Positions 5,327-61,196 of a stretch of 64,000 nt of DNA are shown here, in pieces; positions within the stretch are counted from its first letter, which is position 1, and every line of letters starts with the position of its first letter. The notes below the pieces were generated by a model. It ran no database searches, was not told the origin of the DNA, and worked only from the letters and a program-made list of their open reading frames with translations. Position numbers and translations under genes: made by a program. Origin of the DNA: a virus. Taxonomy: Duplodnaviria; Caudoviricetes. The DNA is taken from positions 320,001-384,000 of the IMG/VR virus record IMGVR_UViG_3300035208_004923; one strand, given 5' to 3'.

Positions 5327-5962
5327 TTAATTTTTAAGTAATTTCAATTTTTTAATTTCGTACGCATACGGAATATTTGCAATTAATCTTTCGTATGGAA
5401 TTTCTTCATATAATTTTGAATCATCGTTATTGAAAATATAGCATGTTATCTTTCCTGTTTTGAGATTCTTAATTATCTTATAGCAAAAAGCAGGAACTAT
5501 TATGTTGTCTTTTTGTTCAAAAGAAAACCCGCCACAAATTATTAATAGCGAATCGTTTTGTGACTGTTTACGAACCTTTGTTTCAATAGTTTTCCAGTGT
5601 CCTCTATTGCATTCAACAGTTTGAGGTAATGCATTATAAAATCTGAACGTTTCTTCTTCATATTGACAGTTATATGCAAAATCTTCTGCGTTTGCCATAT
5701 GACCTATGTCATAACCTGAATGCGAATAATTTTTATTTGACTGTCCTGTTTTAATGCCATCTGTTTTAAATGTGAAATGTTCATCTGCTCTACTGCATGT
5801 TCCACCGCCATGATATAATTTGTAAACAACAAACAAGGGATTTTTTGCATCATAACTGAAGTAACTTTTATAAATATCAGTAGTTATAACGGTATCAACT
5901 TTTTGACCGAATGATGATAATGTTATAAAAGCAAACATTAAAATTAAAAGAATCTTTTTCAT
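5327..5962 (-). CDS. secreted DNA/RNA non-specific endonuclease (NucA/EndoG family)
   Basis: signal peptide; GYDIGHMA, NALPQ..NRGHWK motifs. Confidence 0.85.
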   Translation of the reverse strand: MKKILLILMFAFITLSSFGQKVDTVITTDIYKSYFSYDAKNPLFVVYKLYHGGGTCSRADEHFTFKTDGIKTGQSNKNYSHSGYDIGHMANAEDFAYNCQYEEETFRFYNALPQTVECNRGHWKTIETKVRKQSQNDSLLIICGGFSFEQKDNIIVPAFCYKIIKNLKTGKITCYIFNNDDSKLYEEIPYERLIANIPYAYEIKKLKLLKN

Positions 5963-5969
5963 ATAGTAA

Positions 5970-6452
5970 TTATTTTCGTGTTATCATTGACTCCAACTTG
6001 AATCCAATGCAATATCTTTTAGGTTTTTCGACAATAAGATTCGATACTTTACGTTTTTTACTTTGCGGAATAGAAACAACAGCTTTAATTTTCATGTTAA
6101 ATCGTTGCTCAAATTCAAATACAAGAATTGAATCGTTTTGCGAATTATCGTATATTACATTATTTGTTCCGTATTCATATAATCTTAATATAGGCATATA
6201 TTCATAACTTGAGCATATGCTCATTCTATAATCTCTGCCAGAAAAAATGTCAAATACTGTTTCAAGTATTTCAACATCTGAAATATTCGCACTTTTACTT
6301 ACGCCTTGTCCTTTATCGTTCACAACCAATTGATAACTGTCATGATAATTATTTACAGTATCATTATGGCATGTATTCCAATATCCGTTGCAATCTTGAG
6401 ATTTTAAATTTAAAGACAAAAACAAAAGAACGAATAATAGAATGTATCTCAT
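5970..6452 (-). CDS. exported hypothetical protein
   Basis: N-terminal hydrophobic signal peptide ending LKS-Q. Confidence 0.7.
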   Translation of the reverse strand: MRYILLFVLLFLSLNLKSQDCNGYWNTCHNDTVNNYHDSYQLVVNDKGQGVSKSANISDVEILETVFDIFSGRDYRMSICSSYEYMPILRLYEYGTNNVIYDNSQNDSILVFEFEQRFNMKIKAVVSIPQSKKRKVSNLIVEKPKRYCIGFKLESMITRK

Positions 6453-7972: not shown

Positions 7973-8254
7973 TTAAGCTTTTTCAAATCTCGATGAATTT
8001 AAAGAACGAATATCTTTTGAACTATCTTCAATTGCGTATACTCGTAAGTTACTTCCATCATATCCATCTGCAATAAAAATCTGTCCAATTGGGTATTTCT
8101 TAAATCCTGCAATTGCGGAACCTAACATTGTATGCTCACTTTTTTGGACTTCATTATATGCAGCATCTGTTAATTTTACTTTATCACCTCTTTTAAAATT
8201 AGATGAATTTGATTCATTGATGAATTCTTCGATTGTAGGTATTCTTCTTTTCAT
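7973..8254 (-). CDS. RIP-leader protein (putative internal virion protein)
   Basis: MKRRIPTIEEFINES. Confidence 0.8.
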   Translation of the reverse strand: MKRRIPTIEEFINESNSSNFKRGDKVKLTDAAYNEVQKSEHTMLGSAIAGFKKYPIGQIFIADGYDGSNLRVYAIEDSSKDIRSLNSSRFEKA

Positions 8255-8255
8255 A

Positions 8256-8537
8256 TTATTCGCCTGTAACGTCTGACCACGTGTATATGTTATTTGCATT
8301 TTTCGTTATTGATAAAATGACAGTCTCATCTTTTTCAAGTTTTCTTTCAAGCCATTCGATAATTCCTTTGCCATTTGTTATGCTTGTAATTGTCGATTCT
8401 TCAACTTTTGGCGCAGGTGCTGTTTCAGCTTCCTCATCTGTTGTTATGAATGCATCAAACGTTTTGAATTTTTCTTCTTGATTTTCTTGTTCGTTTGGAA
8501 CTTCTGAATTGATTAATTCTTTAAAATCTTTTATCAT
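8256..8537 (-). CDS. acidic hypothetical protein, degenerate leader
   Basis: MIKDFKELINSE, inside leader cluster. Confidence 0.65.
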   Translation of the reverse strand: MIKDFKELINSEVPNEQENQEEKFKTFDAFITTDEEAETAPAPKVEESTITSITNGKGIIEWLERKLEKDETVILSITKNANNIYTWSDVTGE

Positions 8538-8544
8538 GATTACT

Positions 8545-9225
8545 TTATTTTGTTAAGCTTGCGTATAATGCAGCATAGTGTTCTGCTTTTTGTTTTATTT
8601 CAGCAATACGAGTTTTCATTCTGGCTTGGTCAATTTCTTGTACGCCATTGCTAATCCAATCTGTTGTTTTTGCCTTTGTTTTTGCAATTTCTTCTGTTGG
8701 CGCTTGCACAAATTCAACAGTTCCGCCATAACCCCAACCTTTATATGGGTCAGTGTATATAAATACTTCAAACCATTTATCTTTGAATGCTTCTGGCATT
8801 TTTTCATACATATAAGATTCGATATCATTCCATCCTATCCATTTGCCATTATCATATTCCAAATCAACACTTGTTCCTGCAATTCTATCAGTTGTAATAA
8901 CTTTTATATCATTATTGCTATCTATATAAAATGTATATTTGCCATTAAATGAAGAAGGACCCCATTGTCTGTCTAGTGCTTTCGTGTAACTTTTCGATTG
9001 CAAAATTTCTGAAAACCATCCATGGCCTTTTGCTTCATTTGATACAAATTTTTTAATGATATCATATGTATCAGGACCAAATTTTATAGGACTTAATCCT
9101 TTTAAAATTTTACTTAGATACTTTATAAGTGCATTATCGACATCGGTATTTCTTGCTTCATTTAATACATTAATTTTTTGATTTTCATTAATGTATTCTT
9201 CAATCGTTGGTATTCTTCTATTCAT
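8545..9225 (-). CDS. RIP-leader protein (putative internal virion protein)
   Basis: MNRRIPTIEEYINE...VLNEA. Confidence 0.8.
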   Translation of the reverse strand: MNRRIPTIEEYINENQKINVLNEARNTDVDNALIKYLSKILKGLSPIKFGPDTYDIIKKFVSNEAKGHGWFSEILQSKSYTKALDRQWGPSSFNGKYTFYIDSNNDIKVITTDRIAGTSVDLEYDNGKWIGWNDIESYMYEKMPEAFKDKWFEVFIYTDPYKGWGYGGTVEFVQAPTEEIAKTKAKTTDWISNGVQEIDQARMKTRIAEIKQKAEHYAALYASLTK

Positions 9226-9996: not shown

Positions 9997-10039
9997 CTAT
10001 AATTTTTGTTTTTTGTTATATATTCATATTTTTAAACTG

Positions 10040-10086
10040 AAAAACCTTGACTAATATCACTAAAAGCAATCGTAGTCAAGGTTTTT
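10040..10086. terminator. 14-bp stem hairpin downstream of thyX
   Basis: AAAAACCTTGACTA / TAGTCAAGGTTTTT. Confidence 0.65.
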
Positions 10087-10118
10087 GATTATTTTAGAAT
10101 CGCGATATCACGTATTCT

Positions 10119-10847
10119 TTAGAATGTGATATCATCAAAAATAATTGGAATTTGTTTTTTGAAATCCTCAAGTAACGGAATTGTCAATTCACGCATTTGT
10201 GGATGTGCTGCGGTAGAACAACGAAGTTTGAAAAAATGTCTCCATTCACGAAGATTGCATGCCATATTGATTTCTGTTTTTAATGAATTTGGCAATACCG
10301 CTCTTGCTTCTTGAGGTTTCCAACCACGTTTTAATAAAGATTGATATGAAATTTCAGCAGTTGCCATTGCATTTAAAAATACAAGTTCATTGTAATCTTT
10401 ATCTGTAAATTCTTGTTCTTCGGGTATTTCTGCAAATTGTTTTGCAATAAGTTTACTGTCATGAATTCCTAATTGAATTTCATCAACCCATGGCGGTAGT
10501 ATAAATTGAATATCAGCACCATTTTTTTGTTCGTCAGAGTAATCAACATATCGTGTTGATTCTTGAGCAAAACTTGCAATACGATGTCTTACTAGTTCGT
10601 GTGAAACACCACGATCACAAGTGAACTTAACAGATATCATTCCACCAAATTCAAGCATTGCTTCATGACCTTTTGAAAGCAGAACACCTTTGATTAATTT
10701 TCTAGCAGAAATAGCTTCACCATTTTCTCCATGTTCAATTCGACCTTCGGATTTATAACATGTGCGAGCAGCAACTTCAATTTGTTTTAGAATTTGTTCT
10801 CCATCTATTGGAGTAGTAATTGTGTAAGAAGGTTTTATTAATTTCAT
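10119..10847 (-). CDS. thyX: FAD-dependent thymidylate synthase
   Basis: HELVRHRIASFAQESTRY, EARAVLPN, NLREWRHF..LR. Confidence 0.97.
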   Translation of the reverse strand: MKLIKPSYTITTPIDGEQILKQIEVAARTCYKSEGRIEHGENGEAISARKLIKGVLLSKGHEAMLEFGGMISVKFTCDRGVSHELVRHRIASFAQESTRYVDYSDEQKNGADIQFILPPWVDEIQLGIHDSKLIAKQFAEIPEEQEFTDKDYNELVFLNAMATAEISYQSLLKRGWKPQEARAVLPNSLKTEINMACNLREWRHFFKLRCSTAAHPQMRELTIPLLEDFKKQIPIIFDDITF

Positions 10848-10855
10848 AAAAATAA

Positions 10856-10900
10856 AAGGATTAATGTATAATATTTGTATACATTAATCCTTAATAGTTT
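10856..10900 (-). promoter_or_regulatory. class II promoter variant embedded in a 15-bp perfect palindrome
   Basis: AAACT-N12-TGTATACAA (10875-10900); IR arms 10856-10870 / 10878-10892. Confidence 0.65.
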
Positions 10901-11522
10901 TAGGTAATTTTAATGAGTAATACGGATTATACTGATATGCAATTAACGGATATGCTAATTCGATATTTGCATATTTTGTAATGATTCCTCTGTTTTTATT
11001 ATATCTTTCAATCGTTAAATAGCCATTCATTATACCTTGGTATGTTCCACGACCAAGACATTTAATGTACTTCTTTTTTAATTTTCTAGGCAGTTTCATT
11101 TTCGATTGAAATAGGAACAACTTCGATAAACTCAGGTGCCATATAAAGATGCATTAAAGTTCCGCATTCTCGCGAATCTAAACTGCAATATTTGTACTTC
11201 TTTTTGCCGTACCACGTACGATAAGGTATTTCAACCATAAAATCATGTACGTATTCAGATTGTCGAAGTATTTCTTCTTTTTCTGCTTCAGTACTTACCG
11301 TAATTTTTAACATGATATTCCTGTTGGCTTGTGAATTACTTTTATTGCTGTTACTTCGTACCGAGGATTTCTTTCGAAACGATCATTTGATACATCACAT
11401 TGAACAAACTCAATTGTTATTTCATTTACCGGTACTTTAAGATCTGCAGCAATTAATTCAGCTAATTGCTTCTTCTTAATTTCATACGTTTTTGTAACGT
11501 TTTCACCATTTATGATTCCCAT
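10884..11522 (-). CDS. three small hypothetical proteins (10884-11120, 11086-11313, 11307-11522)
   Basis: overlapping packed ORFs. Confidence 0.55.
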
Positions 11523-11523
11523 A

Positions 11524-12192
11524 TTACTTTGTATTATTTATATGAATGTCAACTACTTTTCTTTTAAATTGTCCAAGATTATATTTATCTTTATTGCCGG
11601 TGTATCCGCCATGTTTAAAACCTTTTTCTGTCCATATGAAAAAATCAGCAGGACCTTTTAAGCCTTTTTGAAAAATAACAACGTCATTTTTAGTTGAACC
11701 TTGAGAAACAAATTTAATCGTGCAATTTTCTCCACCCCATGAAACTGTGTTAGGACATGCGTGTATAAGATTTTCAATTGAATGCTTAATATCAATTGGC
11801 AATTGCGTTATTTCGATATCTTGGTCGTATACGTTAATGTTATTTTGATATTCTTTTATTTTTGCTTCCCATTTTTTGTTTTTATGCAAAATTTCTGGCA
11901 AGATATCATTTACAATATCAATTCCGGTTTTTTCACCAAGTTCGATATAAATACTTAATAAACATTGTAAAGCATCGGCCAATTCTTCCTTTAAGTGTTC
12001 TTTATCGTATGGCTTATAAGTATGTCCTAAGTACTTCAATGCTTCAGCTGTCATTTCACCAAATTCTTCATCGAACTTCATGAACTTTGCTTCAATCGGT
12101 TTTGTTTCAAGTTTATTCAATCTTTCGATGTCATCAAGGATTACATGCAATTGCAATCCTAGTATTGTGTTTCTGTCGAGATTATGATTCAT
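11524..12192 (-). CDS. MazG-like NTP pyrophosphohydrolase fused to a GPAD-motif domain
   Basis: KFDEEFGE...LKEELADALQ; C-terminus shared with 12182-12724. Confidence 0.75.
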   Translation of the reverse strand: MNHNLDRNTILGLQLHVILDDIERLNKLETKPIEAKFMKFDEEFGEMTAEALKYLGHTYKPYDKEHLKEELADALQCLLSIYIELGEKTGIDIVNDILPEILHKNKKWEAKIKEYQNNINVYDQDIEITQLPIDIKHSIENLIHACPNTVSWGGENCTIKFVSQGSTKNDVVIFQKGLKGPADFFIWTEKGFKHGGYTGNKDKYNLGQFKRKVVDIHINNTK

Positions 12193-12724
12193 GATATTTT
12201 ATGTTATTTTTATTAACGTTATTAATATAATATGCAAGTTCAACAATTGTGTATGATTCTTTATATCCGGTGTATGCACCATGATAAAATTTGCCTTCTT
12301 TGTAATAGAACCAATCAGCAGGTCCTCGTACGCCTGCCTCGAAAACAATGATATCGTCGTATGTTGGATTTCCGCTTACAAATTCAATCGTTTTATTTTT
12401 ACCGCCTCTTGAAACCATGTCAGGATACATTGCGACCAATTCGTCAATCATACCATTTATTTCCTTTGGTAATTTTGAATCGTTTTCGCCAGATAAAAGA
12501 ATCAAAAATGAATTAGTTTTTAATGGACATTCCTCAAAAATTTCGTGTTTGATTGTAGGTTCAACATTTGAATCGTTATGATAAGCAAGTAACTTAAAAT
12601 AACTACCTTCATTTAACGTATCTTTATGATTACACGAAATTTGAAACATTGAGCCAGAACCTTTTATAAAATGCTTATAAACAAACGGACAATTATGGCA
12701 GTTTGTTACTTTGATTTCTTCCAT
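12182..12724 (-). CDS. hypothetical protein, Cys-rich N-terminus plus GPAD-motif domain
   Basis: CHNCPF; VSRGG..GPADWF..HGAYTG. Confidence 0.7.
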   Translation of the reverse strand: MEEIKVTNCHNCPFVYKHFIKGSGSMFQISCNHKDTLNEGSYFKLLAYHNDSNVEPTIKHEIFEECPLKTNSFLILLSGENDSKLPKEINGMIDELVAMYPDMVSRGGKNKTIEFVSGNPTYDDIIVFEAGVRGPADWFYYKEGKFYHGAYTGYKESYTIVELAYYINNVNKNNIKYHES

Positions 12725-12725
12725 A

Positions 12726-14924
12726 TTATTTTTTTATAAATGATAATGTATTTCCGTTAACTATTGCAATATAATATCCAGCAGATAAATTTTCAACATT
12801 AATTGATTCTTCATCTGTAATTTCTTTTTCTATTACAGAAACACCATTTGCACCTATAATTTTTACTTTAGATGTTCCTATATTTTTAATTTTAATATAA
12901 TCAGTTGTAGGATTTGGATATATTGAAATTTCATTTGTAATAATACCAACGGCCGTAGTATCTCCAACCGATGTAGTATCTTCAATTCCTGCTTGAATAA
13001 TTATGATTGTTTTTGATACGTTGCCTACAGGTTTTACCTCATCTGCCGCATATACTGTGATTTTAGCAGTTCTCTTTGTTTTTGTCGTATTTGCGCTTGC
13101 GGTAAATGATATTGAGTTTTGATTGCCAACAGTAGTTACAGTTAACCATGTTTGGTCAGAATTTACTTGTATGTAACCTGCATTTGATATTGCATACAGA
13201 TTTTTAAAATTCGATGAACTTGATAAGACAATTGTTGCTGTATCAATTGTTATAATAACATCAGCAGGTTCTTGGGTAACAATTATTGAATCTTTTACAT
13301 TTCCTGCCCAAACAGTAACCTTTGCATGTCGGGGTATTGACATTGGATTTGCTTGTGCAGTAAATGTAATTACAGAATTTGTGATTGCTGCAGTTAACCA
13401 TGGTTCTGATGAAATTGGATAAAGCGAAGTATTTGAAGTAACTGTTACTGTTGCAATACTGTTAGTATCTTTACCAATACTTATAGAATCTTTCAAAATT
13501 GTTATTGTGCCATTGCCTGGTTTTTGTATAATCGTTAATGTTTTAGATGCGGGAACTCCTTTAATTGAATAAAGAATATGTGCTGTAGCAGTTCGAGTGG
13601 TTACATTTGGGTTTTCTTCAATTGCTTTAAATTCAATTGTTCCATTTCCATTTGTTTGCAAATTACTTGTGGTTAACCAAGAATCATTTGATTCAACAGT
13701 CCATGTTGCATTTGATGATACATTGAAAGATACCGTACTGTTTTTTGTGTAATCAATTGTTGCAGTCGTTGAAACAAGGTCAATATATTCGATACCTGCA
13801 GGTTGTGTAATTGTTATGATTTGGTCAGCAATGCCGTTTCCTTTAATTGTAACTGTTGCAGTTCTGTCAATAAGTGTTGGATTTACAGATGCAATCAAGT
13901 TAATAGTTGTTCCATTTGTTGTTAAACTTAACCATGTTTGGTCAGATGTAGCAGTCCATTGTACATTTGCATCAATTGTAACATTTGCTGTATTTACAAT
14001 ATTAATAGTATTTGATGTAACGGATATGTATGGACTTTCGCCTTCTTGCACAATTGTCAAAGTATCTGCTATTGTATCCGCATAACTAGTTGAATTGGTA
14101 GTTAATTGTGTTGTTGCTATTACAATTTTTGCAGTTCTTTTTGATGTAGTATGATTTGCTGATAACGTATATGAAACTGTACCGCCATCCAATCCAGTTG
14201 AATTATTAATAGTTATCCATGGCGAATCTGATGTTGCTGTCCAATCGCCTTGTCCTGTAAATGTGTTATCATATGATGCAGAAGTACTTGGCACTGTATC
14301 AACCGTTTTTGTCAATAATACGCCATTCATTTCAAATATGTACGTAGATGCGGGGATAGTTACCAAGTTTTTATACAATTGCAATGAACCGAACGGAACA
14401 TAATAACTGACAGTATATGTACTATACGTTAAATTTGTAGGAGGGACTTTCGAGAAAAGATAAATGAAACTCCTATTTGCTTTTGTTCCACACAACGTGA
14501 ACATTGCATATGAACCGATTGACGTTACATTTTTTGGTATAGCTAACCATCTAAGCGATGTGCATTGATAAAATGCGTATTTTCCGATTGCTGTCAATGA
14601 TTGCGGTAATTTAATCCAAGTAATGACAAACCGATAAAACGCACTGTCGGGGAGTGCATTATTTGCATAAATTTTAGTTCCACTGTTATATTCAACAATG
14701 TTAGCATTTGATAAATCAACTGTCTTTAATTGATTTTTCATTGTTGTCATGAACACAAAATCACGGTAATCAATAGGACCAGTTACGATTAAATCGGTAA
14801 CTGTTGTAGTAGTAAATTTCACTGACATTTCGCCAGCGGCAGTAGAGTTGTACGTTGAGTACACTTGGGCGTTTACTGCGATTGCAATAAAAAATCCCGT
14901 CAATAAAAGGAATAGTTTTTTCAT
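12726..14924 (-). CDS. T9SS-secreted surface protein: signal peptide, BspA-type LRR, multiple BACON domains, Por secretion CTD
   Basis: LP.SLT.IG.YAF LRRs; repeated WTATSD..W(I/L)...AN...R.A; C-terminal IYPNPT...LSAGYY...FIKK. Confidence 0.9.
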   Translation of the reverse strand: MKKLFLLLTGFFIAIAVNAQVYSTYNSTAAGEMSVKFTTTTVTDLIVTGPIDYRDFVFMTTMKNQLKTVDLSNANIVEYNSGTKIYANNALPDSAFYRFVITWIKLPQSLTAIGKYAFYQCTSLRWLAIPKNVTSIGSYAMFTLCGTKANRSFIYLFSKVPPTNLTYSTYTVSYYVPFGSLQLYKNLVTIPASTYIFEMNGVLLTKTVDTVPSTSASYDNTFTGQGDWTATSDSPWITINNSTGLDGGTVSYTLSANHTTSKRTAKIVIATTQLTTNSTSYADTIADTLTIVQEGESPYISVTSNTINIVNTANVTIDANVQWTATSDQTWLSLTTNGTTINLIASVNPTLIDRTATVTIKGNGIADQIITITQPAGIEYIDLVSTTATIDYTKNSTVSFNVSSNATWTVESNDSWLTTSNLQTNGNGTIEFKAIEENPNVTTRTATAHILYSIKGVPASKTLTIIQKPGNGTITILKDSISIGKDTNSIATVTVTSNTSLYPISSEPWLTAAITNSVITFTAQANPMSIPRHAKVTVWAGNVKDSIIVTQEPADVIITIDTATIVLSSSSNFKNLYAISNAGYIQVNSDQTWLTVTTVGNQNSISFTASANTTKTKRTAKITVYAADEVKPVGNVSKTIIIIQAGIEDTTSVGDTTAVGIITNEISIYPNPTTDYIKIKNIGTSKVKIIGANGVSVIEKEITDEESINVENLSAGYYIAIVNGNTLSFIKK

Positions 14925-14953
14925 TTTGTTTAAGAATTGGTTAAATTATATGT

Positions 14954-14992
14954 AAAATCAAATATAAACTATATTTGATGTAATAGCAATAG
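14954..14992 (-). promoter_or_regulatory. class I promoter (variant copy)
   Basis: CTATTGCTATT...TATATTTGATTTT upstream of T9SS cargo gene. Confidence 0.7.
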
Positions 14993-15017
14993 AAAATGAA
15001 ATTATTTTCAAAAAAAG

Positions 15018-15830
15018 TTAAAATAATGTTACAGATTTTTCAACAAGTTTTTTTCCTTCAGTTATTTTTGCAAATTCTTTGATAATTTTACGGAATTCTT
15101 CTGGAATTATTCGCAAAACGCGTTCTGCTAATTCATTAGGCAATTTTTCATAAAACACATATGCAAGGCCACAAGCAATTGCAGCCAATGTATCGGTATC
15201 TCCACCATGCATAATGCTTTCTCTAAGTACTTCGGTAAAATCATTTCCAGTAAAGAAACAATTGAATGCTTCATGAACACCTGTTATCGAATGTAAAGAA
15301 TTTTTACGTGTATCAACATCACCTGGTTTTTTGTATTCATAACCATATGTTGATTTCAACATTTTGTACAATTCAGATTTATCTTTGCAAGTTCGCGCCA
15401 TGAATGTTACATGAGCAAGTTGCATTACAGCGTCAAGCGAATCTGTATGATTATGTGTGCATGATGATTGTTTTACAGCTTGTCTTAAAACTGTTGGCAA
15501 ATCGTTGTAAAATAACGGAATTGATAACCCACGCATTGCTGAACCATTTCCATAGCTGTTGTACGCAGCTCTATCACCGGCAGTATTTGCCCATTTTGTA
15601 AACATTCCGCCGTATCCCATTCTTGGGTATTTTCTAGCATATTTTTGAATCATCATATCAAATGGACGGTTTTTCAATAAAGCTTCAGAAACAGCCAATG
15701 TTAAAATTGTATCATCTGTAAAACGATTTGCCTTTGTTATAAATTTGAACTCTGGGCTGATATCAGTTTTCCATTCCTTTGTTGACCCAACAACATCGCC
15801 GATTACAGCGCCAAGTAAAAAGTATTTCAT
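15018..15830 (-). CDS. ADP-ribosylglycohydrolase (DraG/ARH family)
   Basis: GAVIGD, FTDDT, SYGNGSAMR, GGDTDT. Confidence 0.93.
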   Translation of the reverse strand: MKYFLLGAVIGDVVGSTKEWKTDISPEFKFITKANRFTDDTILTLAVSEALLKNRPFDMMIQKYARKYPRMGYGGMFTKWANTAGDRAAYNSYGNGSAMRGLSIPLFYNDLPTVLRQAVKQSSCTHNHTDSLDAVMQLAHVTFMARTCKDKSELYKMLKSTYGYEYKKPGDVDTRKNSLHSITGVHEAFNCFFTGNDFTEVLRESIMHGGDTDTLAAIACGLAYVFYEKLPNELAERVLRIIPEEFRKIIKEFAKITEGKKLVEKSVTLF

Positions 15831-15831
15831 G

Positions 15832-16579
15832 TTATGCCATTTGTTTTTTTAATTCAGCAATTCTTTTTTCTAAATTTTCTATAGTATTTTGCAGTTCAAC
15901 ATTATCCTTGAATGCGTCAACCGTAATTATTTGTAATCCTTGATATAATTTTGTAGCGGATTCATTAATATGTTTCAACGCTGTTTTTTTGGTTCCTAAT
16001 AAATTTGAACTAATGAAAGGGTCAATCCCAACTCGAACGCGTTCTTTATAAACAGTATCAATACAGTATGTATCTTGTAACGTTAATTTAATGTTATTTG
16101 CGATAATTGGTGTTCTTAATGTTTTGTTATGTTGTTGTAGTAACAATTTTCACAATTCAACGTCAACATCTTTTTTATTACGTTCAGCATAAATTTTATG
16201 CACGATATCATAAAATGCAGCGGTAAATGTATCGTGACAAATAATTACAAGTGGTTTTGACCTGCGACCGTCTGCAATTGGAAATTTTAACGATAAATTC
16301 ATTCTTGATGAATTTTTTGCAATTGATGTTTTATCGCCATAAATTTTATGCACCCAAATTTTACCGTTTTTTTTCAGTAAATACCCATTTTACAGATTTT
16401 GTTTTGATTGTAGTATCTTCCATTTCAATAGTTGTACTGATGTTTTTCCATTTATTTGCAGGAATCAACGTTACATGCAAACCAATTGCTTTTGCGTAGT
16501 TAAAAGCACCAGTTTCTCTAAAAAGTTCAAAATCTTTTAAATAAGATTGACGGATTTTTGGATTTTCAATTATTGTCAT
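15832..16579 (-). CDS. three small hypothetical proteins (15832-16146, 16150-16353, 16361-16579)
   Basis: packed ORFs downstream of a class I promoter. Confidence 0.6.
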
Positions 16580-16602
16580 AAGTAGTGATTTTTAATGTTT
16601 TT

Positions 16603-16652
16603 ATCAATTAATTAAAATCAAATATACAACATTTATGATGCAATAGCAATAG
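16603..16652 (-). promoter_or_regulatory. class I promoter
   Basis: near-identical repeat copy. Confidence 0.8.
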
Positions 16653-36251: not shown

Positions 36252-37871
36252 TTATGAAAATAATTTTACATAAGATGATAATGAATCGTATGCATCTGTT
36301 AATTTGAATTCTTCAACTATTAATTTTCCATCGTATATTTTGCCGTTTATTGCATCAACTGAAATAAAATCGCCTTCTTTATAAACTTTATTGTTAATTG
36401 TTAATGTTAATGTTTTCATATCAATTGTCATATTGCTACAGCCAACAACACAAGGTTTATTCATTTGTCTTGCAACAATTGCTGCGTGGCATGTCATACC
36501 ACCTCTTGTTGTTATAACGCCATCTGATAATTTCATACCAATTAAATCAGCAGGTGATGTATCAATTCTAACTAAAATTGAGTTTTCTCCGGATTTATTA
36601 AATTTTTCAACACTTTCATTATTAAAAGCAATACGGCCAACCGCAATACCGCTTGATGCACTTAATCCTGTTGAAATATGAATATCGTTTACTTTTAATC
36701 TTTTTGCATTAAGAAAATGCAATTGAGTTTTATCTATTCTATTCAATGCAGTATTAGGTGATATTAAACCTTCGCACGCCATATCATATGCAATATTAAC
36801 AGCGCCAAGTATATTACATTTTGCATTTCTTGTTTGTAAAATGTAAACAATTTCATTTTCTATCGTAAATTCGATATCTTGAACATCGCCATAATGTTGC
36901 TCTAATTTATTAGCATAAGATATGAGTTTACTATATGCAATTGGCATTGATTCTTCTAATGAAATGTAGTTTTTATTTCGTTCAGTTTCATCTATAAAAT
37001 TATCAGTTGCCCATTTTGCCGATTCATATTTCGATATTTTTTTAGGTGTAACAACACCTGATACGATATCTTCACCTTGTGCTTTTGTCAAATATTCTCC
37101 AGTTATCAGATTTTCACCTGTAATAGGATTTCGTGTAAATAATACACCCGTTCCTGAATTGTCATTTATATTTCCAAAGACCATTGATTGTACAACAACA
37201 GCAGTTCCTAATGAATCATCTATGCCGTATGATTTTCTGTAATAAACAGCAACATCATTATTGAAAGAATTGAATACTGCAGATATTGAACGGAATAACT
37301 GCGTGTATACATCAATAGGAAATTCTTCACCGATTTCTTTGAAATACAACTTTTTATATTCTGCAATTGCTGTTTGCAATTCTTCTACTGTTGCGTTATT
37401 ATTGCAAAAATCAAATAAATCTTCATCGATGCCAGACACATGAATTGCAAAAGTTTCGATGAATTTCAAATATAATCGTAATGGAAATATTGCATCTCCA
37501 GTTTCTTTAGCAATTACATTAACAATATCATCATTGATTCCAACATTTAAAATTGTTGTCATCATGCCAGGCATTGATTCAACACCGCTTGAACGTATTG
37601 ATAAAAGTAATGGATTAGAACTTCCGCCGAACAACTTGTTTGTTTCTGATTCTAATGTTTTTATATCATTAGTAATATGCTGTTTTAATTCAGATGTTAT
37701 GTTTTTATCGTTTTTCCATTTTGCGTATGCATCAGTTGAAACAATAAAACCGTATGGCAATGAAACATTCAAACGATTCATTTCTAAAAGATTGAATCCT
37801 TTTCTACCTACTGCTGTTAATTCGGCAGTATCTGAAAAATTTGTTCTAAAAAAATACGATAGTTTATTCAT
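36252..37871 (-). CDS. pyruvate phosphate dikinase-like protein lacking the C-terminal pyruvate-binding domain
   Basis: PLLLSIRSSG..SMPGMM.TILN, AVVVQSMVFGN, SGTGVLFTRNP, AQGEDIVSG, DIEFTIE, LQTR, GGMTCHAAIVAR. Confidence 0.85.
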   Translation of the reverse strand: MNKLSYFFRTNFSDTAELTAVGRKGFNLLEMNRLNVSLPYGFIVSTDAYAKWKNDKNITSELKQHITNDIKTLESETNKLFGGSSNPLLLSIRSSGVESMPGMMTTILNVGINDDIVNVIAKETGDAIFPLRLYLKFIETFAIHVSGIDEDLFDFCNNNATVEELQTAIAEYKKLYFKEIGEEFPIDVYTQLFRSISAVFNSFNNDVAVYYRKSYGIDDSLGTAVVVQSMVFGNINDNSGTGVLFTRNPITGENLITGEYLTKAQGEDIVSGVVTPKKISKYESAKWATDNFIDETERNKNYISLEESMPIAYSKLISYANKLEQHYGDVQDIEFTIENEIVYILQTRNAKCNILGAVNIAYDMACEGLISPNTALNRIDKTQLHFLNAKRLKVNDIHISTGLSASSGIAVGRIAFNNESVEKFNKSGENSILVRIDTSPADLIGMKLSDGVITTRGGMTCHAAIVARQMNKPCVVGCSNMTIDMKTLTLTINNKVYKEGDFISVDAINGKIYDGKLIVEEFKLTDAYDSLSSYVKLFS

Positions 37872-37872
37872 A

Positions 37873-37921
37873 ATCAATTTTTAAAATCAAATATACAACA
37901 TTTAGAAATCATTAGCAATGG
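37873..37921 (-). promoter_or_regulatory. class I promoter
   Basis: repeat copy. Confidence 0.75.
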
Positions 37922-44392: not shown

Positions 44393-45235
44393 ATGAAAGC
44401 ACCGATAATTAAAATTTGTCCTTTTTGCTTAATTGAATTTATTGCAAAACGAACAAAGTCAGTTTTTTGTTGTAGATCGCATGCGCAAACATATGCAGCA
44501 AACAAACCCGAACGTATTGCATTAAGTTCTTTAAATGCAAAAGCTAGATGGACGGATGCTACATTCAGAAATCATATGTTAGAAGAAATTAAAAATTTTG
44601 CATCATCTGCGGAATTCAAAGAAAAACAGTCGGTTGTTCAAAAGGAAAGACAATCTCATCAATCGGTAAAAGCGGAAATTAGCAAACGTTCCAAAGAACA
44701 ATGGGCAAGACAAGAAACGAAGGAAAAACAATCTGCATCGCAAAAAATTGCGCAAAATAAGTCAGACGTTAAAGAAAATAAGTCACACAAACTTAAGCAA
44801 ATAACAAATGAATGGCACTGGCGTAAAAGACAATCCCAAAATATGTTAAATTTATGGAAAAATGCAGATTATGCAGAACGTGTATTTGCTGGAAATAAAG
44901 CAGCAATGTATAAACGTTACGATTTTATATTGCCATCTGGCACAATAGTAAAGTTGCAAGGATATGAACCTCGCGCATTGCGTGAACTGTTAGAAACTTA
45001 TCATGAATCAGATATAGTAATCGGCGTTAAAGAAATGAATTCCGTCATAGGAACAATTTCGTATTTGTTTGAAAGTAAAGAAAGAACATATTATCCAGAT
45101 TTTTATATAAAGTCAACTAATACAATAATAGAAGTTAAAAGCACGTGGACGTTTGAATCGGAAAAGGAAAAAAATATAGCAAAAGAACAAAGTTGTTTAT
45201 CAAAAGGATTTGCTTTTAAATTTATTATTTATTAA
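44393..45235 (+). CDS. putative homing endonuclease (Zn finger plus PD-(D/E)xK)
   Basis: CPFC..FCCRSH; LPSG..VK.QGYE, YYPDFYI...IIEVKS. Confidence 0.75.
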   Translation: MKAPIIKICPFCLIEFIAKRTKSVFCCRSHAQTYAANKPERIALSSLNAKARWTDATFRNHMLEEIKNFASSAEFKEKQSVVQKERQSHQSVKAEISKRSKEQWARQETKEKQSASQKIAQNKSDVKENKSHKLKQITNEWHWRKRQSQNMLNLWKNADYAERVFAGNKAAMYKRYDFILPSGTIVKLQGYEPRALRELLETYHESDIVIGVKEMNSVIGTISYLFESKERTYYPDFYIKSTNTIIEVKSTWTFESEKEKNIAKEQSCLSKGFAFKFIIY

Positions 45236-45920
45236 ATCGTGCAAATGCCTTCTCTGTTATAAATATTTTTCTCGACTTTTTAAATTCTAACAAATTCTTA
45301 GACGAAGTATAGCTCATTGCACTTGACAGATAATGTTTAAAATTTTCAACCCAACCGTCAATTGTGTATTCAACAGGATTCATTCTTGTAATTCCTTCCG
45401 ACGTTTTTATTACGTCAGCGCCTAAAGATTTTTGTGCACCTTTAGTACTCATTCCTCTAAATTTTTTGAAAAATTGAGTTCCGTAATTAAATGCAATTTC
45501 TGTTTCCTCTGCATATTGATTCACCTTTTCACCTGGTTCAGTCCAGCCATCGTTCTTTTTATTTTGTTTGTATGTATCGCCACAACTTTCCAATGCTTTA
45601 TTGAAAATTGAACCAATCATACAAAAATCAGCACCTAACGCAAGTGCTTTAAGTATATCTGAGTAACTTTTAAATCCACCATCTGCAATTATTTTTGCAG
45701 GTTTTTCTAATCTTAAAGACATTTCATAGCATTCAGAAATAAGTGATGCCATTGGATAACCTATTCCTGTTTGAACAGTTGTAAGACACCCGCTGTTATG
45801 AACAATAATTCCGTTTATATTATATGAATGATCTGTTTCTATACATAAATCATGTACTGTACCTTCGTAATATTCAACACTTTTTTTTATTTCTATTAAA
45901 TTAAAACTTCGTTTTCCCAT
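45225..45920 (-). CDS. split-intein C-part fused to IMPDH/GMP reductase C-terminal half
   Basis: VHDL...HSY...IVHN|SGCLTT, IIADGG, KALALGAD, FRGMS, SEG. Confidence 0.92.
   Translation of the reverse strand: MGKRSFNLIEIKKSVEYYEGTVHDLCIETDHSYNINGIIVHNSGCLTTVQTGIGYPMASLISECYEMSLRLEKPAKIIADGGFKSYSDILKALALGADFCMIGSIFNKALESCGDTYKQNKKNDGWTEPGEKVNQYAEETEIAFNYGTQFFKKFRGMSTKGAQKSLGADVIKTSEGITRMNPVEYTIDGWVENFKHYLSSAMSYTSSKNLLEFKKSRKIFITEKAFARFNK
45795..45920 (-). mobile_element. C-intein (42 aa)
   Basis: blocks F and G, terminal His-Asn, +1 Ser. Confidence 0.9.
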
Positions 45921-47008
45921 GATTTTATTCTTTTAAATTCGCATTTTAGATATGTTCGTATTTCTTCTTCTCGTATTTTATCTTTCTCTCGTAAGTTCCC
46001 ATTTCTATCAAAATGATATGGCTCATCATATTCATATACAATATTATTTATTTCATCATAGCCATCAACAAAATAACCTAAATCTTTAATATGATATTCG
46101 CCGCCGTTCAATGCATGACATATTTGCGTATTTGTCTTTTTTGCAAGTTTATCAAAATACGTGCAGCCATTTACATTAAAATTGGGTTGATGAATACAAC
46201 CGTTTGGAAAATACATTGCAATACGTTTAAGCATTGTAACTCTAAGATTTCTTCTATGTTCTGTTGAAAATTCGCGGCCTTTTAATGATTCTGATATTTT
46301 ATCTAAAATGTCATTCCATTTATCTGTTTCTTTTAACTTTCGTATCGCGTTTTTCATATTTTGTTTGTATGCTTCAAACTTTATATCTGCCACTTCTTTC
46401 CCATATTTTTCTTCCCACACAGAATAAACAGATTTACCAAACATTGGATTATTATCGCATGAACTCGCAAACTGTTGTCTCACTTTGTACGCTTCAAACT
46501 TTATATCTGCCACTTCTTTCCCATATTTTTCTTCCCATACAGAATAAACAGATTTACCAAACATTGGATTATTTTCGCCATCGTATTTTCCTTTCATCCC
46601 ATCAGACCTATGTTTTTTCATTTCTGGAGAATGCCGTTTATTATAAAACGGATTATTTTCGCCGATAAAATTTTCTTTGATATGATTATCCCACATCGAA
46701 TTGCCTGTTTCTTCACCATACTTTCCAATCCATATTGTCTTCAAAGATTTTTCAAACATTGGATTATTTTCGCCTTTAATTCTGCATTTTCTACATAGAA
46801 AGATTTTATCCAATTTTGGCCGTGATCTTTGAACAGTTTCATGTCCGCAATCGCTGCATATAATTTTATTGAATTTCATATTTGCTTCCTTTGCACGCAT
46901 TTCATTGCCATCAATAAACTTAAATACAAAACAATTTTTATTTTTTAATTCATACGCAATAACTTGAACGTCATCAATATAAAATGTCGGTATTATTTTT
47001 GTTTCCAT
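45896..47008 (-). CDS. free-standing endonuclease (NUMOD3-like repeats plus Vsr-like domain) between split-intein halves
   Basis: GENNP(M)F repeats; GYFVDGYD...YEYDEPYH. Confidence 0.8.
   Translation of the reverse strand: METKIIPTFYIDDVQVIAYELKNKNCFVFKFIDGNEMRAKEANMKFNKIICSDCGHETVQRSRPKLDKIFLCRKCRIKGENNPMFEKSLKTIWIGKYGEETGNSMWDNHIKENFIGENNPFYNKRHSPEMKKHRSDGMKGKYDGENNPMFGKSVYSVWEEKYGKEVADIKFEAYKVRQQFASSCDNNPMFGKSVYSVWEEKYGKEVADIKFEAYKQNMKNAIRKLKETDKWNDILDKISESLKGREFSTEHRRNLRVTMLKRIAMYFPNGCIHQPNFNVNGCTYFDKLAKKTNTQICHALNGGEYHIKDLGYFVDGYDEINNIVYEYDEPYHFDRNGNLREKDKIREEEIRTYLKCEFKRIKSWENEVLI
46367..46572. repeat. near-perfect intragenic duplication with 120-bp period
   Basis: NNPMFGKSVYSVWEEKYGKEVADIKFEAYK encoded twice. 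Confidence 0.85.
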
Positions 47009-47069
47009 TTCTTGTTTATTTTATATATAAAGAATATGAAATGCAAATTATACAAGAATTGGAGTTGGG

Positions 47070-47372
47070 CTAATATTGAATCAATAAATGTGTGTTTTCA
47101 TCCAAATCAACAGCAGATATCCATTTTGCATATGCTGATATGTTATCATCATCGACTATATCTTTATACTTTTTGTCAATAACGTAGTATTCATGATTCA
47201 TTGTTGAACCTTCACCATTAATAAATATTATGTCTTCTTCTTTATTATATGTATATGTTTCTATTACTTTTTGCCATATGTTTGTGTGTGTTAAGACATA
47301 ATCACCAACTTTAACATCTTCTATATTTTTCAATCCTGTTTTTGTCAAAACTTTTGTTCCTCTGATGAAACA
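47070..47372 (-). mobile_element. N-intein (100 aa)
   Basis: block A CFIRGTKV, IEDVKVGD, block B TMNH. Confidence 0.9.
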
Positions 47373-47885
47373 GCCGCCTCCAATACCGCAACGAATTGCA
47401 TCGGCGCCAGCAATTGATAAATCCCAATACGTTTCTGGATTAGCAATATTACCTACCATAAGATACAATTTTGTTCCGTATTTTCTTTTTGCTGCACCGA
47501 TAGCGGATGACAAACTTGCCATGTGTCCATTAGCAATATCAATAAGTACATAATACGTTCTATCATTACCTAAGATTAATTTAGATAATGTTGAATCTTT
47601 TAAAAACAAATCAGTAAATTGCGTTAAACTGTATGATTTAAAAATTTTTGCAAAATCGCTGTAATCTTGAGACCTTGCATCTTGTACTCTTGGAAATACT
47701 GCATATATGTTATTATTCAAAAAATATTCATAGTTATCATTATTAATAACAGTATCCATTGGTGCTGTCATAATTGGTAACATGCCATCATCATTAAACA
47801 AATTGCATTCGCTTCTTGATGAAATTTCCGTCGATACGGATGGGACGATAAGAATATCGTCAAAATCAAATTTTCTTTCTATCAT
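47070..47885 (-). CDS. IMPDH/GMP reductase N-terminal half fused to N-intein
   Basis: DFDDILIVP, APMDTV, IDIANGH, GNIA, GADAIRCGIGGG|CFIRGTKV. Confidence 0.92.
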   Translation of the reverse strand: MIERKFDFDDILIVPSVSTEISSRSECNLFNDDGMLPIMTAPMDTVINNDNYEYFLNNNIYAVFPRVQDARSQDYSDFAKIFKSYSLTQFTDLFLKDSTLSKLILGNDRTYYVLIDIANGHMASLSSAIGAAKRKYGTKLYLMVGNIANPETYWDLSIAGADAIRCGIGGGCFIRGTKVLTKTGLKNIEDVKVGDYVLTHTNIWQKVIETYTYNKEEDIIFINGEGSTMNHEYYVIDKKYKDIVDDDNISAYAKWISAVDLDENTHLLIQY

Positions 47886-48120
47886 CTTTTCCTTTTTTAA
47901 GTGCTTTTTCGATTCCGTCGCATATTGCAACAAAATCTGGGTTTAACGATTGTCTTAAATATACGCCTGTGCCTTGTAATGAAGTTTCGGCATAACACTC
48001 AACAAGTTCGATAATTCTATTCTGAATTTCTTTTTTATTGTGTTTCCAATCAGCGCCTTTTGTTTCTTTTGACATTTCAATCATTTTCATGATTGCTTTT
48101 AGTTCTTTATCAAAATCCAT
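47866..48120 (-). CDS. hypothetical protein
   Basis: 84-aa ORF. Confidence 0.6.
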   Translation of the reverse strand: MDFDKELKAIMKMIEMSKETKGADWKHNKKEIQNRIIELVECYAETSLQGTGVYLRQSLNPDFVAICDGIEKALKKGKDDRKKI

Positions 48121-59761: not shown

Positions 59762-60492
59762 TTATTCTTTATGAAAGATTGCTTCTAATATTTTGTTATC
59801 TGATTCCAAGAATTCTTGTACCTCAGCATAAGGTTTTAAAACAATGTATATTTCATTTACACCGTTTTTATCTTTTGTTCCAATAAATTCGATGCGGGTT
59901 GTATGTTTCTCTCTCCAGTTATTTGATATTTTACAAGTTCCTAAGATTAGAGTTTCTGCACCGCCGTTGATTATTTTCATGATTTCATAACATTATTTTA
60001 TGTTATGGAGTTTTAAGTGATGCTACGCATTCTCTATAGCATGTCCACAATTTATTATCAATTTCGTATAACTTATTAACGTTTTCACGTTCGTCAGACC
60101 AAGGAATTTGAACTTTAAAATGATACACATTTTCTAGAACTTTGCCTGTTCCGTTACAATTTTCGCATGTCACAAAAGTACTATCTCTAAATCCATGTTC
60201 CTCTCGTTTACCACTGCCTTTACACGTTTCGCATAACTTAATATCCATTGTTTTATATATTACTTTGTTGTTGGACTTTCGAATGTTTATCTGATACTTT
60301 GGCACGTTCTTTTTCTAATGCACGTGTGATTTTACTCTTTGGAAAGAAAACCCTAATTAAAGAAACCGGAACTAAGGGTGCCCACCAAAATGTTAACCAA
60401 ATAGGAATATGTCCTATTGCAAATAATGAAACTAAAATTGCAACAACTGCTATTCCGATTGTTCCAAAAAATATGTAATCAGCTATTCTCAT
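59762..60492 (-). CDS. three small proteins (59762-59980; 60003-60248 DnaJ-type CxxCxGxG Zn finger; 60253-60492 membrane)
   Basis: CETCKGSG..CENCNGTG; two hydrophobic segments. Confidence 0.65.
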
Positions 60493-61196
60493 TAATATGC
60501 ATTTAAGTGTGCCATCAATTCAATTACGCCTGATGTTGCTGGTTTTTGTATATGAACAAAAGAGACATCAGATTTTGAATTTACTTCAGCAGGGTCGATT
60601 AAATAAATTTCAGTTGTGGTTGCAATATCAAGTAATGATGCTGCAGGATATACTTGTAAGCTTGTTCCTACAACGACAACAATATCAGCATCACGTACAA
60701 TTTTTGCAGCTTCATGCATTTTAGGAACTGCTTCGCCAAAGAACACAACAGCAGGTCTGTAATCAGGTCTTTCTTTTAAATCTAAAGGAGCGTATCCTAT
60801 ATCAATTGTTTGCGAATTATCACCTCTTAATACATAAACAGGATCTTGGTCTTTACGAATTTTTGTTAATTCACCATGAATATGTAAAATATTTGTACTT
60901 CCCGCTCGTTCGTGTAAATCATCAACGTTTTGTGTAATCACATGTACGTCAAAGTGTTTTTCAAGTCGGACGATATTAAAATGCGCGCTATTGGGTTTTA
61001 TTGATTCAAGATCTTTTCGTCTTTCATTATAAAACTCATTCATTTTATCTTTCATCGAATGCCAAGATCTGATATTTGCATATACAGCAGGATCATATTT
61101 TTCCCATAAGCCCCCTTTGTCACGATATGTATCAATTCCGCTTTCTTTTGAAATACCAGCACCTGTTATGAATACTAATTTTTGTTTCTTTTCCAT
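60492..61196 (-). CDS. cobB: Sir2/CobB NAD-dependent protein deacylase
   Basis: TGAGIS.ESG, TQNVD.LH, HG, RP.VV.FGE, GTSL.VYPAA. Confidence 0.95.
   Translation of the reverse strand: MEKKQKLVFITGAGISKESGIDTYRDKGGLWEKYDPAVYANIRSWHSMKDKMNEFYNERRKDLESIKPNSAHFNIVRLEKHFDVHVITQNVDDLHERAGSTNILHIHGELTKIRKDQDPVYVLRGDNSQTIDIGYAPLDLKERPDYRPAVVFFGEAVPKMHEAAKIVRDADIVVVVGTSLQVYPAASLLDIATTTEIYLIDPAEVNSKSDVSFVHIQKPATSGVIELMAHLNAY

Follow-up and report, generated by a model that had tools for sequence, protein, structure and literature searches.

A predicted type IX secretion cargo protein with an LRR head and a BACON stalk, encoded under a host-sigma-type promoter in a T4-like jumbo phage of Bacteroidota

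[quoted passage not shown] Cryophage (Bellas et al. 2020, PMC7468147) carries three genes for type A T9SS cargo, for which hijacking of the host T9SS and superinfection exclusion were proposed, and a crAss-like cluster 2 ORF combining BACON with a T9SS sorting domain was described by de Jonge et al. (2019, PMC6949934). No functional study of phage T9SS cargo was found in the literature on phages, jumbo phages and T9SS, nor any experimental report of exclusion by a phage protein placed outside the outer membrane through the host T9SS. The principle of phage T9SS cargo, including an ORF with BACON and a C-terminal domain (CTD), is thus already published, and the novelty implied by the first-pass annotation of the present locus, made from the letters of the DNA, was too high; the gene studied here is a well-supported further example.

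The gene lies in a window of 64,000 nucleotides, the whole stretch of DNA that was analysed, to which the positions below refer unless a contig is named. The window is enclosed in a contig of 425,361 bp (C1) with a terminal overlap of 4.6 kb, so the genome is taken as circular, of about 421 kb. A T4-like capsid protein (Gp23), T4 portal, terminase and prohead protease are all encoded on this contig, together with about 52 tRNAs, and no tyrosine integrase was found in the phage genome. Among named records, the capsid protein was closest to LR756500 (47%) and to Lak megaphages (41%). The phage is a circular, T4-like, Lak-related jumbo phage. The GTDB genome that holds contig C1 is a small archaeal MAG, about a quarter of which is this mis-binned Bacteroidota jumbo phage; the other contigs of the bin (C2–C78) belong to a small archaeon, and the MAG is irrelevant to the host question. 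Shine-Dalgarno motifs precede 2.8% of the phage genes versus 23% in the remainder of the bin, and adenine is enriched near −12 and −3 ahead of phage genes, in line with translation in Bacteroidota (PMC6847099). No match to SprA or PorV was found in the phage genome or in the archaeal bin. The host is almost certainly a member of Bacteroidota, and Paludibacter/Prolixibacteraceae are a plausible host group. The phage was present in landfill, groundwater and wastewater samples, runs with a small share of phage not being taken as habitat evidence. The genome also contains a Sir2-like gene (60492–61196) and, recognised by eye only, pyruvate phosphate dikinase-like and IMP dehydrogenase/GMP reductase-like genes (36252–37877 and 45225–47933, minus strand), the latter type broken up by an endonuclease ORF and an intein-like sequence.

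The target ORF (12726–14924, minus strand) is an intact frame of 732 aa, composed as follows from the N-terminus to the C-terminus.

14868–14924, minus strand: Sec/SPase I signal peptide, residues 1–19, assigned by eye and with a hydrophobicity heuristic
14325–14867, minus strand: minimal BspA/TpLRR-type module, residues 20–200, with N-cap, 2–3 repeats and C-cap
12987–14315, minus strand: stalk of five tandem BACON domains, residues about 204–646, from PF13004 matches
12930–12992, minus strand: acidic, Thr-rich, disordered linker, residues 645–665, with candidate PorU site G654/D655
12729–12923, minus strand: type A T9SS CTD, residues 668–732, from PF18962 and TIGR04183

Read by eye, the signal peptide shows MKK, a hydrophobic core and V-N-A before Q20, with no lipobox. 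The Q20 junction fits the Bacteroidetes Q-rule for signal cleavage (PMC5837995), and host homologs have the same xNAQV junction. Of the non-lipoprotein signal-peptide-like proteins that a simple heuristic selected from the contig, 7/7 have Gln at a plausible cleavage site. Two adjoining genes (5327–5962 and 5970–6452, minus strand) encode signal-peptide proteins, each with Gln at the cleavage site, one being a DNA/RNA non-specific endonuclease (PF01223) and the other an unknown protein of 160 aa; the endonuclease has a similar counterpart in a 482-kb relative phage (L064:14572–15054).

The LRR_5 match of the head (46.5 bits, residues 91–142) was above the curated Pfam cut-off. The head aligned cap to cap, at 30–39% identity, with host modules of 176–270 aa, the shortest natural ones, and its structure model (pLDDT 77–98) matched Bacteroides BT_1240 (3SB4) with a Z of 18.2 and an rmsd of 2.0 over 143 residues. 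When the head was used for a profile search, long LRR proteins dominated the matches. With only 2–3 canonical repeats, the head is a complete minimal capped solenoid, neither a remnant nor a long BspA array. So, the BspA-type LRR read in the first pass stands as to its type, in the form of a single minimal module. Concerning the stalk, PF13004 matched five stretches (94.5 bits, above the curated cut-off), where the structure model displays five beta-sandwich domains; a Foldseek search with the whole protein returned only generic Ig-repeat matches. Each BACON repeat is closer to some bacterial repeat (38–51%) than to its siblings (23–42%), and a quick, poorly resolved tree, suggestive at most, did not group the five repeats together and left two of them on long branches. 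In the linker, pLDDT falls below 50 at residues 649–663, and G654/D655 is a candidate PorU site that fits the published preference for a small P1 and a polar or acidic P1′ (PMC5445135).

The CTD was matched at the very end of the protein by Por_Secre_tail (PF18962, residues 668–732, 36.1 bits versus a cut-off of 27) and by TIGR04183 of NCBIfam/TIGRFAM (31.4 bits versus 23). It keeps the invariant PNP (as YPNP), G and GxY motifs and a beta-sandwich fold in the model, and its family profile matches the solved CTDs 8GLK, 8GLJ, 5M11 and 5AG8. The signal peptide, about five BACON domains and CTD read in the first pass were therefore borne out in an intact ORF, and the profile matches named there for checking (TIGR04183/PF18962, BACON and LRR_5) were all above their cut-offs. 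The CTD is compact, with 64 aa from YPNP to the end, a shortness equalled in 2/126 comparison CTDs; its short last hairpin recurs in about 10% of them and in the cargo of another jumbo phage. It ends in SFIKK, lacking the first K of KxxxK, and a K..K ending was matched in only 49/126 comparison CTDs. The model of its complex with PorV, for which a Paludibacter PorV stood in, scored 0.86 versus 0.01 for the best control, a mark reached by 58/80 solved complexes and 2/110 mismatched pairs; at least 94% of contacts recurred between runs, and the partner pLDDT was 81 or higher. Similar PorV-CTD complexes have been solved (8GLJ, 8GLK, 8GL6 and 8GL8), and what the model conveys is that the CTD, for all its compactness, still looks like a ligand of PorV, a likeness to those complexes and not a proof of binding.

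The best relatives with the full architecture showed 30–34% identity and, where named, belonged to Paludibacter and other Bacteroidales; the host surface protein BspA of T. forsythia was among the closest. A genome scan with the relative closest in architecture returned mainly Paludibacter and Prolixibacteraceae, and comparison with host homologs gave the same modules in the same order at 30–39% identity. SprA and PorV were present in 5/5 donor-type genomes tested, and a PorU-like C25 gene adjoins PorV in the one such genome checked. Bacteroidales of the Paludibacter/Prolixibacteraceae type are the likely donor of the gene. Searches for an orthologue in other phages, limited at 30% identity, found none in IMG/VR, in INPHARED (only fragments) or in PHROGs. 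No syntenic relative that would polarise gain versus loss of the target gene was found through the neighbour genes.

The gene with its upstream region is base-identical, in a syntenic locus, in ENA ERZ27247363 (a 379-kb contig), ENA ERZ27247358 and Logan SRR8542065, and a single contig of even depth covers 10000–16625. Its codon usage stands at the 43rd percentile of phage genes. In a sister strain (L010), two extra mobile endonuclease-type genes occur near the locus (8088–9077 and 14985–15683; DUF7487, LEM-3 GIY-YIG), with the cargo gene unchanged. The surroundings of the gene include the following features.

14959–14989, minus strand: promoter TTG-N20-TATATTTG, 34 nt upstream of the target ATG
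10119–12724, minus strand: downstream run of a 180-aa orphan, a MazG-like gene, three small ORFs and ThyX
15018–15830, minus strand: ADP-ribosylglycohydrolase gene upstream of the target (PF03747, 101.8 bits)
12745–15000, no strand: stretch with gene and promoter that is skipped by one wastewater-metagenome contig

The promoter matches the −33/−7 consensus of the primary sigma factor, sigma-A, of Bacteroidota (PMC6847099). The TTG-N20-TATATTTG-type motif occurs in 59 copies on the phage contig versus 0–5 in ten order-3 Markov simulations, and the copies share a long consensus. A generic sigma-70 scan, the wrong model for Bacteroidota, gave 24 sites versus 25.4 expected. There are no copies within 156–288 kb of the contig, the block with the head and most structural genes. 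The motif precedes 50 genes and a AATATATAA box precedes 64, including virion genes such as those of the sheath and prohead protease, and no gene has both. About 50 unrelated ORFs (7973–58324 and across contig C1) start with an R-I-P-T/S-x-D/E-E/D-F leader that resembles the T4 capsid-targeting sequence; they stand in runs, often headed by a AATATATAA box. As far as can be read from the DNA, the target promoter would be a strong, near-consensus, host-sigma-type element with no need of a phage factor. It is a sound inference that its class is the presumed early (non-late) one, with timing assigned by analogy with T4-like phages. So, the claim that the gene has its own phage promoter and is integrated in the phage programme held, while in the wording "early promoter" the separation from the virion-gene class is observed and "early" is the part that comes from the analogy. 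RNA-library contigs cover parts of the gene, contigs alone saying nothing of transcription, its timing or its level. Positions 14957–14979 form a perfect inverted repeat (10 bp, with 3 nt as spacer) into which the −7 element of this promoter extends, and a few other copies of the class have an almost identical palindrome.

Downstream of the target, the gaps between genes are 1, −11, 1, −7, −14 and 36 nt, another promoter motif being absent from the run, and the six tightly coupled genes, of which ThyX is the last, are probably co-transcribed with the target from its promoter. The promoter is therefore no proof of a dedicated cargo role. On the other side, the ADP-ribosylglycohydrolase gene ends the preceding early-class run, whose promoter sits at 16649.

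Among the strain differences listed inside the gene, 9/13 were synonymous versus 25–29% expected (p 0.001–0.003), a small sample from low-depth wastewater contigs; these are signs of purifying selection. In the gene-less contig, position 12744 is followed directly by 15001, and the next gene is set off by a clean spacer of 37 nt. It is weak evidence (n = 1, depth 2.6, with 42 letters on its shorter side, aligned at 80% likeness); a contig of the same depth from the same run has a variant at 15033 that is also seen in another wastewater run, and the empty-site junction was not found in IMG/VR or JGI, from which near-identical records may be missing. There are thus hints of a polymorphic cassette, of which the promoter appears to be part because the junction removes it together with the gene.

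Another CTD gene was found in the same genome (contig C1 34721–36019; L012:4722–6020, minus strand), encoding type A T9SS cargo of 432 aa. It has a Cys-rich, beta-solenoid-like body and an LPIEL-type Ig domain and no promoter of its own; upstream of it, a gene for a PARP-domain protein with a weak WGR match was seen (contig C1 38148–39446; L012:8149–9447, minus strand). Its relatives of 50–56% identity are in phage-like neighbourhoods and those of 36–39% in bacterial ones. A scan with this family matched 162 IMG/VR loci, with a canonical CTD in 17 of the best 80. Most of these best 80 viral relatives (L066–L144) end in a short tail like NxLGQEV...Y.G..I..YxDG..K, which scores poorly on the CTD profile and could represent a shortened type of CTD. 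T9SS cargo genes were also seen in five other large phages: a complete phage of 482 kb, whose capsid is related, carries unrelated cargo with SprB repeats, and four further Gp23-bearing contigs of 345–508 kb have 1–3 CTD matches each, with a −7-type element just upstream in two of these CTD genes. In Lak-A2, which has an alternative code, a loose first look gave no PF18962 match, a weak negative. Predicted T9SS cargo thus recurs, in interchangeable form, among large phages of Bacteroidota, with very varied bodies (propeller, SprB repeats, glycosidases).

Considering the intact signals, the long retention and the recurrence, it is likely that the target protein is exported by the host T9SS, and infected cells would probably display this phage-made protein. 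All cargo hallmarks are intact, and T9SS genes are found in the donor-type genomes tested, no SprA or PorV having been found in the phage; against this count the unusually short CTD and the missing first K of KxxxK. The course of events could be as follows. The phage would have gained a surface-protein gene from anaerobic Bacteroidales of the Paludibacter/Prolixibacteraceae type, kept a compact version and put it under a strong host-sigma-type promoter. Expressed presumably soon after infection, the protein would be carried by Sec over the inner membrane and taken up through its CTD by host PorV/SprA; PorU, by the known pathway, would cut the acidic linker, and the product would be anchored to LPS or shed. 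It would present an LRR binding head on a five-domain stalk of some 20 nm, judging by Ig-domain size, which might bind or cover a surface receptor or the fibre of an incoming phage. Superinfection would thereby be excluded, and progeny shielded from receptors on debris.

Lytic phages often make envelope proteins early in infection that exclude superinfection; T5 Llp and T4 Imm and Spackle are examples. Because of this precedent, and because T9SS parts and cargo were proposed as phage receptors in Flavobacterium, where loss of T9SS leads to phage resistance (PMC9804748), receptor shielding or superinfection exclusion is favoured, tentatively and at less than even confidence, as the purpose of the target. 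It is doubtful, if possible, that jumbo T4-like Bacteroidota phages routinely run an early programme of exchangeable promoter-plus-cargo units that remodels the host surface via T9SS, with the LRR-BACON rod as its extracellular exclusion or receptor-shielding protein; the great variety of phage cargo argues against one shared exclusion function. Should the host T9SS prove to export such a phage protein, phages would be altering the exterior of the cells they infect by means of the host's own secretion apparatus, which would point to receptors of uncultured jumbo phages of anaerobic Bacteroidales.

Among the alternatives, an exported adhesin holding the infected cell to nearby hosts, to biofilm or to particles, with progeny released beside new hosts, is unlikely but the least so. 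The closest full-architecture relatives are host surface proteins, T. forsythia BspA included, BACON domains have been described as linkers by which binding domains are displayed on the surface (PMC6949934), and the phage occurs in landfill, groundwater and wastewater; yet one minimal LRR module, compared to up to several per host protein, would give low avidity, and late tethering would profit a lytic phage as much as early. Shielding is slightly favoured over adhesion, with no result of the analysis separating the two. It is improbable that the gene is a passenger, a weakly selected accessory heading an operon whose real payload is MazG-like and ThyX. The promoter shared with the downstream run, the contig suggesting a gene-less allele, the lack of an orthologue in the phage databases searched and the two BACON repeats on long branches would agree with it, whereas the intact 2.2-kb frame, phage-like codon usage and only 30–34% identity to any relative indicate long retention, strain differences are enriched in synonymous ones, and the gene-less junction takes the promoter along.

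A decoy that saturates PorV/SprA and lowers the display of host cargo, phage receptors included, would fit the near-consensus promoter, the compact CTD, its modelled likeness to a PorV ligand and the resistance of Flavobacterium that lost T9SS. However, jamming needs little beyond a CTD, and here a folded, ligand-type head, a long five-domain stalk and a PorU-compatible linker were kept, and the short last hairpin recurs in about 10% of comparison CTDs; so the translocon jamming offered as an option in the first pass is disfavoured, being somewhat less probable even than the passenger. A role in the virion, as decoration or as a BACON protein associated with the tail of the sort suggested for crAss-like phages, is very improbable: BACON arrays are known from phage structural regions (PMC6949934; BFVD matches), the crAss type being defined by a place among tail or structural genes and by the lack of export signals, but the target carries both a signal peptide and a CTD, has an early-class promoter, sits away from the structural block, and has neither the late box seen before the sheath and prohead-protease genes nor a RIP-type leader. 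Finally, a bacterial gene joined to a phage contig by chimeric assembly, a doubt raised in the first pass to which the mixed bin with its archaeal contigs gave some ground, can be dismissed in view of the identical syntenic locus in three other assemblies (some samples of which may share a site of origin), the even-depth contig and the phage-specific promoter and codon usage.

Compared to known systems, the likeness to T5 Llp and T4 Imm/Spackle is a functional analogy only, between early envelope proteins of lytic phages: these proteins are small, unrelated to the target and act in the periplasm or membranes, and none is known to use a host outer-membrane secretion system. With Cryophage the phage shares type A CTD proteins that vary between strains, encoded in a phage of Bacteroidetes; Cryophage is a 76-kb phage with glycoside-hydrolase-type and PA14 cargo, whereas here a 421-kb T4-like phage with no tyrosine integrase carries a non-enzymatic LRR-BACON cargo with an assignable promoter class. 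[quoted passage not shown] The Paludibacter/Prolixibacteraceae LRR-BACON-CTD proteins and T. forsythia BspA agree with it in modules, order, capped LRR, signal junction and CTD; most of these host proteins have 700–2850 aa and several or longer LRR modules, in contrast to the one minimal module, shortened caps and shorter CTD of the target, at 30–39% identity. For the phage T9SS cargo genes published so far, annotation is the whole basis. The target brings in addition a promoter class, a T9SS-bearing lineage as likely donor, indications of purifying selection and what may be a polymorphism in the presence of the gene, features which make it a clean candidate for a first test of the export of a phage protein by the host T9SS.
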